DNA of 64,000 bases from a virus. Where the stretch lies: IMG/VR virus record IMGVR_UViG_3300022926_000006, positions 1-64,000 of that record; one strand, 5' to 3'. The position numbers and the translations under genes are program-made. Below are positions 1,146-1,339 of this stretch, piece after piece. Every line of letters starts with the position of its first letter. Position 1 is the stretch's first letter. The notes below the pieces were generated by a model. That model saw only the letters and a list, made by a program, of their open reading frames with translations, made no database searches and had not been told where the DNA came from.

Positions 1146-1170
1146 AAAAAAGGGGACATTTAGTCCCCTC
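1146..1170 (-). terminator. Intrinsic terminator after pqqA
   Basis: GGGGAC-TAAAT-GTCCCC hairpin followed by a T-run on the minus strand. Confidence 0.8.
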
Positions 1171-1176
1171 TGAGTA

Positions 1177-1248
1177 TTACTTGTTCATTATGTACATTGT
1201 TACTTCAAATCCAAATCTCATTTCTGTATATGTTGGTTTAGTCCACAT
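1177..1248 (-). CDS. pqqA: Pyrroloquinoline quinone precursor peptide PqqA (23 aa, [23 protein letters not shown])
   Basis: Hand-translated; MW.KP...E.R.GFEVTMY with the invariant ExxxY core; GGAG RBS at 1258-1255; downstream terminator. Confidence 0.93.
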   Translation of the reverse strand: [23 protein letters not shown]

Positions 1249-1339
1249 AATTTTCTCCATAAAATTTTATGCAAAATGCATACTATTACTTATAAGATTA
1301 GAGTGATAAATTGACTAAGTATTATCATGAATTTATAAT

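Follow-up and report, generated by a model that had tools for sequence, protein, structure and literature searches.

What use could a phage make of a precursor peptide when none of the enzymes that process it are encoded beside its gene? This question is raised by a small gene in the IMG/VR contig IMGVR_UViG_3300022926_000006 (82,083 bp, CheckV completeness 47%), whose positions 1–64,000 constitute the window considered here. The contig belongs to an uncultured, T4-like myophage from coastal marsh water, and the gene is a 72-nt open reading frame (ORF) which a first-pass annotation had read as pqqA. PqqA is the substrate of a pathway in which, with PqqE and PqqD, a Glu and a Tyr of the peptide are cross-linked; pyrroloquinoline quinone (PQQ) is built from this pair and one peptide is consumed per PQQ. 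From the sequence comparisons described below we consider it quite probable that pqqA is an auxiliary gene feeding the host PQQ pathway in a phage of a PQQ-making methylotroph, probably one of the Methylophilaceae (OM43-like), and that it is selectively maintained as a self-contained unit.

The minus-strand ORF and its GGAG site were present as the first-pass annotation had quoted them:

1177..1248, minus strand: pqqA, 23 codons (1180–1248) followed by a TAA stop at 1179–1177; matches PF08042 and TIGR02107
1255..1258, minus strand: GGAG ribosome-binding site, 6 nt before the inner ATG of pqqA, by direct reading

The outer open frame (1177..1260, minus strand) gives 27 amino acids from an outer ATG, and the inner ATG at 1248 gives the 23-residue peptide. 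Since the outer ATG overlaps the GGAG and is missing from the related IMG/VR contig L309, and since every PqqA homologue compared begins with M-W or M-x-W, the 23-codon reading is preferred. An AGGAG- or GGAG-like site precedes most of the viral pqqA copies listed. Searches with hidden Markov models, which the earlier annotation had suggested, confirmed its identification of PqqA. The window peptide exceeded the cut-offs of both curated models about twofold, with 43.2 bits for PF08042 (cut-off 21.1, E 3.6e-11, profile positions 1–19 of 19) and 46 bits for TIGR02107 (cut-off 20, E 3.1e-12, positions 1–21 of 21), and this ORF was the only PqqA profile match in the 82,083-bp record. The Glu-x3-Tyr pair is intact (E15-V-T-M-Y19). 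Both residues are also kept in L309 and in six of six copies from phage isolates, all of which were found without a pqqA DNA pattern. The window gene is thus a genuine pqqA and not a chance ORF. On the opposite strand, a 41-codon ORF with a TTG start (1181–1306, plus strand) was considered as a second gene and rejected. Among distinct copies, 77 of 83 viral and 105 of 118 bacterial ones have one or more antisense frames open across pqqA, and this ORF is read as a by-product of the pqqA codons.

The same gene recurs in other phages. Of 50,697 phage records compared with the window peptide by tblastn, 12 matched. Ten are phages with a lone pqqA, and nine of these are named phages of Methylophilales or Methylophilaceae (Venkman, P19250A, MEP301, MEP401, MEP402 and four Melnitz records), whose taxonomy lines range from unclassified Caudoviricetes to Zobellviridae and Kyanoviridae; the tenth is an uncultured phage from a freshwater spring (Manatee Spring). 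Beyond these nine, the NCBI taxonomy lists further methylophages (MEP431–434, HIM624-A, phiMB624-A, Venkman EXVC038S, MG-MTP1 and RSA-MFP1), and pqqA is accordingly not ascribed to all cultured methylophages. The other two matches, both named 'Acinetobacter phage MD-2021a', carry ppk and pqqBCDE; they were taken as bacterial DNA, dropped from the phage count and used solely as the source of PqqB–E query proteins (Acinetobacter). One of them (L009, CAKLQF020000010.1), a 144-kb record of the phage collection with ppk and a full pqqABCDE operon, looks like bacterial chromosome.

Melnitz (MZ577097, pqqA at about 76134–76208), Venkman, P19250A, MEP301, MEP401 and MEP402 each have a lone pqqA of 23–24 codons with the same 10-residue core as the window. 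The site differs in Melnitz, where pqqA lies before the tRNA-Leu and gp5 baseplate-hub genes, whereas it follows gp23 in the window. In the GenBank entries of Melnitz, Venkman, P19250A, MEP301, MEP402 and the Manatee Spring phage, the pqqA site bears no feature or lies under an opposite-strand 'hypothetical protein'. Such proteins cover the pqqA bases at 3961–4056 of locus L003 (MZ577097, MelnitzEXVC044M_152) and at 2067–2195 of locus L008 (MW202481, UOF77531.1), the real gene being unannotated. No pqq gene name occurs in the main texts of the Melnitz, Venkman, MEP301 and MEP401/402 papers, whose supplementary annotation tables may list pqqA.

A search of IMG/VR with a degenerate DNA pattern for pqqA returned at least 118 stretches. 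All 118 listed encode an intact PqqA of 23–25 codons, with 49 distinct peptides among them, and together with the isolates and the window they fall into 23 clusters by flank similarity. With the Acinetobacter PqqB–E proteins as queries, none of the 118 viral loci listed had PqqB–E near pqqA, compared with 35 of the 120 bacterial pqqA loci listed, which served as positive control. At 20 of the 118 viral loci, pqqA is found past the end of a gp23-type gene at a distance of 85–1418 nt, and in 17 of them both genes are on one strand; the 20 loci comprise two capsid groups, 61–64% and 30–37% identical to the window gp23. The largest flank cluster, with 47 loci (L013, L017, L021, L022 and 43 more), has no flanks in common with the cultured methylophages or the window phage. 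Eight viral contigs (L039, L051, L095, L107, L109, L124, L049 and L116) carry a lone pqqA with another core, RLGLEVTLY, and no pqqB-E within the fetched flanks, suggesting that phage pqqA may extend beyond the phages of methylotrophs.

For an analysis of selection, 126 viral copies were reduced to 85 distinct DNA sequences. The frame is intact in all 126, with 22 codons from Trp to the stop in every case, and the same number was found in 127 of 127 bacterial copies. The viral search pattern fixed W, K, P, Y/F, D/E, R, G, E, V, T and Y. Third positions, fourfold sites included, vary freely, and the codon for Gly13 is GGT in 39, GGA in 24, GGC in 16 and GGG in 6 of the 85 viral sequences. Residues that the pattern left free or loosely fixed are nevertheless highly conserved (Met18 in 74, Phe12 in 74, Phe14 in 80, Ile/Val20 in 85 and Lys/Arg23 in 84 of 85). 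These patterns indicate that the pqqA peptide is selectively maintained in phages. Codon use separates the viral from the bacterial copies. Arg11 is AGA in the window and in 38 of 85 distinct viral copies versus none of 117 distinct bacterial ones, which use CGT or CGC, and Gly13 is GGA in the window and in 24 of 85 viral versus 2 of 117 bacterial copies. This phage-like codon use argues against a recent pick-up and against an assembly chimera. The window gene hence combines the features of an auxiliary metabolic gene: it is a host-derived metabolic gene, has phage genes on either side and is kept under selection.

Around the gene, the following features delimit a compact unit:

1392..2669, minus strand: gp23-type major capsid gene (PHROG 138 major head protein, E 1.6e-154), directly upstream of the cassette
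1336..1370, minus strand: gp23 terminator, stem-loop 1370–1341 with a 13-bp stem, a UUCG loop and a U run; upstream boundary of the cassette
1287..1330, minus strand: promoter-like element of pqqA, with TTCATGATAAT at 1331–1321, TTAGTC at 1318–1313 and the TATAAGTA box at 1294–1287; spacing ATGATAAT-N26-box
1143..1171, minus strand: pqqA terminator, stem-loop 1171–1149 with a 9-bp G+C-rich stem and a U run; downstream boundary of the cassette
1133..1140, minus strand: late-promoter-like box GATAAATA of the next gene, 28 nt before its ATG at 1105, by direct reading
521..1105, minus strand: tail-tube-family gene (PHROG 45 'tail tube', E 3.2e-34), downstream of the cassette

The gp23 terminator (−23.6 kcal/mol, z −5.89) was matched by none of 200 shuffled sequences and the pqqA terminator (−15.0 kcal/mol, z −3.39) by two of 200, and both are conserved in L309. 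The placement of pqqA after the gp23 terminator and its possession of a terminator of its own, which the first-pass annotation had put at 1146–1170, were thereby upheld. Scaffold and prohead-protease genes lie upstream of gp23 and uvsY follows the tail-tube-family gene, so that pqqA is flanked by phage genes on both sides, a major head gene and a tail-tube-family gene. The gene with its promoter-like element, ribosome-binding site, 23 codons and terminator is a self-contained unit of about 200 bp inserted after gp23. It does not adjoin pqqBCDE in this record. The earlier annotation had noted no pqqB–E in the window and had proposed a search of the remaining genome; across the whole 82,083-bp record no match was obtained for PqqB, PqqC, PqqE, a radical-SAM protein or a PQQ-dependent dehydrogenase, and as the record is only about 47% complete, this absence holds for the 82 kb alone. 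The PqqC model gave no match in control genomes and detected PqqC in five of five methylotroph genomes, which shows that the search works. A PqqD candidate at 50936–51058 (PF05402, 18.2 bits, cut-off 23.4) was discarded as spurious; the ORF concerned is of a coiled-coil membrane type, and this search also matched 14 of 14 control genomes.

The site after gp23 was compared among related phages, as had also been suggested, and the cassette proved to be present in some and absent from others. The closest cultured phages by gp23 protein are Melnitz, whose host is OM43 (68.3% identical), and the Pelagibacter phages HTVC008M (67.3%) and Mosig (64.3%); of the three, only Melnitz was among the pqqA tblastn matches. 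Of the 80 IMG/VR loci with the closest gp23 relatives, only L309 (gp23 88% identical) has pqqA after gp23. In the nearest relatives, L248 and L249 (gp23 89% identical), 34 bp with one terminator separate gp23 from the next gene, whereas the window and L309 have about 190–225 bp extra at this position (about 225 bp in the window). The sole terminator of L248 and L249 corresponds to the pqqA terminator, and their similarity to the window resumes at the tail-tube-family gene (521–1105). No pqqA was found elsewhere in the 74-kb L249 contig or in three larger relatives, two of which are rated 100% complete. Between the window and L309, pqqA differs in six codons; the four differences in the core and tail are all synonymous, and the leader carries two replacements. 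The pqqA DNA of the two is about 90% identical, compared with 75.7% for the overall match including gp23.

This arrangement resembles the PeSL cassettes, promoter-plus-stem-loop units which Arbiol and colleagues reportedly described in 2010 as shuffling small genes in T4-type phages. These have in common with the window a small gene with its own promoter, stem-loops on either side and presence or absence among close relatives. They differ in that the promoter-like element of the window goes with pqqA specifically and resembles host pqqA promoters rather than a general phage early promoter. In seven T4-like, capsid-adjacent loci (L012, L078, L082, L089, L099, L103 and L111) pqqA follows a terminator and an exact TATAAATA and its stop lies 3–6 nt from the next ATG; here pqqA is the first gene of a late operon and not a closed unit.

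Which polymerase form would read the gene in the window is less clear-cut. T4-type late promoters consist of a TATAAATA box read by gp55, located about 25–45 nt ahead of the start codon. This exact box is enriched in the window (19 found versus 7.1 expected) and precedes gp23 (2720–2713), the scaffold gene and others. The first-pass annotation had proposed a variant late promoter for pqqA. The TATAAGTA box is indeed present at 1294–1287, matches the late box at seven of eight positions and ends 38 nt before the pqqA ATG, but it is not enriched in the window (4 found versus 4.18 expected) and also aligns with the −10 box of a host-type pqqA promoter, so that the promoter assignment is ambiguous. 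The only other minus-strand TATAAGTA in the window (8441–8448) ends 28 nt before the start of the ORF at 6889–8412, suggesting that the G variant of the late box may serve elsewhere in this phage.

The sequence upstream of pqqA reads TTCATGA-N6-TTAGTC-N18-TATAAG. The box is paired with an ATGATWWT exactly 26 nt upstream; this pair, ATGATWWT-N26-WWTAARTA, occurs once in the 82-kb record, at pqqA (chance 0.05 per window for a slightly looser form), and none of the other 51 ATGATWWT sites of the record has the box at +34. In 124 other viral and isolate pqqA loci (970 kb) the pattern occurs 22 times, 21 of them just upstream of pqqA; the Melnitz-like cluster, two other flank clusters and one singleton account for these 21. 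The 80 gp23 loci (519 kb) contain a single instance, ahead of pqqA in L309, and among the 120 bacterial loci listed it was found twice, in neither case near pqqA. Host copies share a related element. TT[CA]ATGA is found in 31 of 120 bacterial pqqA upstream regions versus 164 of 5000 random windows, and the composite TT[CA]ATGA-N6-[AT]TAG in 11 of the 120 listed versus 4 of 5000; six of these 11 loci are titled, all as Methylophilaceae or Methylophilus. The same composite is present in three of 101 viral upstream regions (window, L309 and Melnitz) versus none of 5000 random windows, and Melnitz and the window both have TT[CA]ATGA-N6-TTAGTC-N18-TATAAGTA. The window thus appears to match a host-type pqqA promoter pattern composed of TT[CA]ATGA, [AT]TAG after 6 nt and a NATAAN −10-like box 18–19 nt further on, in an alignment whose rows were chosen by ATGA and ATAA and whose independent parts are only the preceding T, the C/A and TAG. 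The spacing would suit a sigma-70-type promoter that has an additional site upstream, TTAGTC/TAGTCA lying 17–18 nt before TATAAG and TTCATGA being centred about 30–35 nt further up. Because the upstream element is common to the window, L309, Melnitz and orphan host pqqA genes, TATAAGTA may be a captured host-type −10 box rather than just a variant of the late box. We give about equal weight to this reading and to a late promoter in the window, and the exact TATAAATA before pqqA in the L012 group suggests that the expression class probably differs between lineages. A structured RNA leader was also considered and dropped: 15 phage leaders gave no consensus (−0.4 kcal/mol, 0 covarying pairs), and the leader folds of the window and L309 are no better than those of shuffled sequences (z −1.0 and −0.4).

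Salt-marsh, marsh and aquatic metatranscriptomes from 14 studies contain this phage. Contigs of three salt-marsh RNA libraries from 2018 are identical to it over 1510–1890, 2296–4574 and 757–1103, where gp23, the genes for scaffold and protease, and the tail-tube gene are located. In library X1 these contigs have depths of 169.9, 36 and 4.9, a disparity within one genome that is more in keeping with RNA than with carried-over DNA. For the 167-nt bin with pqqA, summed contig depths of 4647, 5827 and 1974 were obtained in X1, X2 and X3, respectively, compared with 2–1570 in gp23 bins and 0–5 in downstream bins; the depths sum all contigs at least 90% alike, other organisms included, and cannot rank genes. 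Other phage copies are about 90% and host copies 85–88% like the window pqqA. High expression of pqqA was therefore rejected as a conclusion, and the depth of its bin is not counted as evidence of expression. No variant letters were seen between 434 and 1296 in X1–X3, and X6, which has no cover in the pqqA bin, is uninformative. A bolder account would have pqqA travel among unrelated methylotroph phages as a complete host-style unit, made up of a captured promoter whose dedicated upstream site, TT[CA]ATGA, keeps a fixed distance of 34–35 nt from the −10 box, of the 23-codon gene and of a terminator. The host polymerase, possibly with a host pqqA regulator, would read the gene independently of the late genes; the unit would settle repeatedly by the capsid gene, and its message would be among the most abundant phage messages in the field. 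Taken as a whole, we regard this account as doubtful.

To which host does the gene point? The 10-residue PqqA core was searched in one genome per prokaryote species, which yielded at least 120 stretches, 80 of them with titled rows. Among the matches listed, 65 of the 80 titled rows bear methylotroph names (54 Methylophilaceae-type, seven Methylophaga or Methylophagaceae and one more by scaffold label only, three Methylococcaceae-type), and 15 are uninformative. The core is thus characteristic of methylotrophs, above all the Methylophilaceae. In the bacterial sample, only peptides of the common Methylophilaceae type end in the −MNK tail of the window. The nearest bacterial peptides in the sample share 20 of 23 residues; the best matches overall share 22 of 23 and are viral, three of them in Melnitz-like contigs. 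The earlier remark that the PqqA variant is Methylophilaceae-like agrees with the predominance of such names, and its hint at a methylotroph host such as OM43 agrees with the fact that the cultured phage closest by capsid, the OM43 phage Melnitz, has pqqA as well. An OM43-like member of the Methylophilaceae is our favoured, if by no means firm, assignment of the host.

The make-up of host pqqA genes explains how a lone copy could be of use. Five methylotroph genomes reached via the matches contain 3, 3, 4, 3 and 7 pqqA copies, and each has one PqqC and one PqqE above the cut-off, except for G004 with two PqqE. In the 1.3-Mb genome G001 (the genome of locus L171, by title Ca. Methylopumilus universalis) all three pqqA are at least 120 kb from pqqC and pqqE, and its pathway operon has no precursor gene beside it. 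Overall, 93 of 127 bacterial pqqA copies lie more than 600 nt from pqqB and encode the same peptides as linked copies. Adjacency to pqqBCDE therefore does not define the PqqA family in the likely hosts. These hosts feed the pathway from unlinked pqqA copies, and an extra copy acting in trans fits that design. The orphan pqqA genes of Methylophilaceae (PF08042, TIGR02107) resemble the window gene in length, core, lack of linkage to pqqB–E and, for a subset (11 of 120 listed), upstream architecture; the window gene differs in its AGA and GGA codons, its phage structural neighbours and a best identity of 20 of 23 residues.

We propose the following course of events. The PqqA peptide would be made from the phage unit during infection, host PqqD would present it to PqqE, which would cross-link Glu15 to Tyr19, and host PqqB, PqqC and a peptidase would complete PQQ. 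The extra copy could raise or maintain the supply of a limiting substrate, since one peptide is used per PQQ and the hosts run the pathway from several unlinked copies; that the precursor is limiting is suggested by this copy number and stoichiometry. PQQ-dependent (XoxF-type) methanol oxidation, and hence the energy supply, might thereby continue as host transcription declines. Gene identity, cassette anatomy, the distribution among relatives, the recurrence in many phages, the lack of adjacent pqqB–E, selection on the peptide and the make-up of the host pathway are observed; that the peptide is translated, that host enzymes process it and that the phage benefits, as well as the identity of the host and the timing of expression, are points that we infer.

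Several points weigh against this proposal. According to the excerpted text of the Melnitz paper, OM43 culture medium contains 1 nM PQQ; hosts can thus grow with external PQQ, and the need for extra synthesis is not self-evident. In the missing half of the genome, pqqB–E or a methanol dehydrogenase could be encoded. Position 7 of the window peptide is Tyr, whereas it is Ala in all cultured methylophage copies (Melnitz, Venkman, P19250A, MEP301, MEP401 and MEP402) and in the common Methylophilaceae copies, which leaves room for another methylotroph host. Finally, several residues were set by the search pattern, and that these do not vary across the 118 contigs is partly a product of its design and uninformative.

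Other explanations have to be considered. If the phage peptide occupied host PqqD and PqqE without yielding PQQ, it would act as a decoy that shuts off PQQ synthesis and, for example, saves S-adenosylmethionine and reducing power. Such a role might account for the peptide being carried alone and never with its enzymes (PqqB–E at none of the 118 viral loci listed), and for leader positions 3, 6 and 8 and a tail that differ from host copies. However, the cross-linked Glu and Tyr and the entire core are identical to those of host copies, also in finds that did not depend on the pattern (L309 via gp23, isolates via tblastn), and loss of a reactive residue would be expected in at least some lineages. 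The hosts, too, rely on unlinked copies that have this form, and we consider a decoy very unlikely. That the cassette is a neutral hitch-hiker, host DNA acquired along with its promoter and terminator and retained only for being tiny and harmless, would explain its presence or absence among close relatives and the resemblance of its promoter-like element to that of host orphan copies. On the other hand, neutrality is hard to reconcile with an intact frame of constant length in 126 of 126 viral copies, core changes that are only synonymous and codon use adjusted to the phage. The recurrence of the gene in 23 flank clusters and in all nine named Methylophilales or Methylophilaceae phage records returned points in the same direction, and a hitch-hiker appears most improbable.

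Exclusion of rival phages was considered as well. In E. coli, the outer-membrane importer PqqU is a phage receptor and PQQ blocks a PqqU-dependent phage, according to excerpts of PMC12124388, and PQQ released by an infected cell might likewise close a PqqU-type importer to competitors. Nothing indicated a PqqU homologue in the host or a phage using PqqU, no search for one having been made, and PQQ would have to be exported within one latent period; this explanation seems extremely unlikely. Supply of the precursor to the host pathway thus remains the explanation that we prefer.

Phage-encoded pqqA is already in print. Virus-encoded PqqA in the Lake Baikal viral population VP_266, with a predicted Methylophilaceae host, is reported in the excerpted text of Coutinho et al. 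2020 (Microbiome 8:163; PMC7678222), and pqqA is listed among viral phosphorus-cycle genes of reservoir sediments in that of PMC13188868. As far as the excerpt of PMC7678222 goes, VP_266 and the window have in common a viral PqqA gene and a methylotroph host, and the gene was read there as an auxiliary gene supporting methanol oxidation. According to the same excerpt, VP_266 is a freshwater lake virus whose representative also encodes a methanol dehydrogenase, whereas the window phage turns up in salt-marsh RNA libraries and has no such gene in its 82 kb; cassette anatomy, insertion polymorphism and an upstream element are not described in that portion of the text. The window is therefore a well-supported further example of a gene published in 2020, and the new detail, which is modest, consists of the polymorphic insertion, the repeated position next to the capsid gene and the upstream element of host type.

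For phage biology, pqqA, a 72-nt ORF overlooked by gene callers, is a cheap host marker for uncultured methylotroph phages, and the promoter signature of host type gives experiments a way into the question of how a phage can place an acquired gene under host regulation. PQQ is the cofactor of lanthanide-dependent methanol dehydrogenases, with which OM43-type bacteria turn over the methanol of coastal waters. If phages top up the consumed PQQ precursor, infected cells would keep oxidizing methanol, which bears on estimates of carbon flux and on the way in which phages manage the energy of their hosts.

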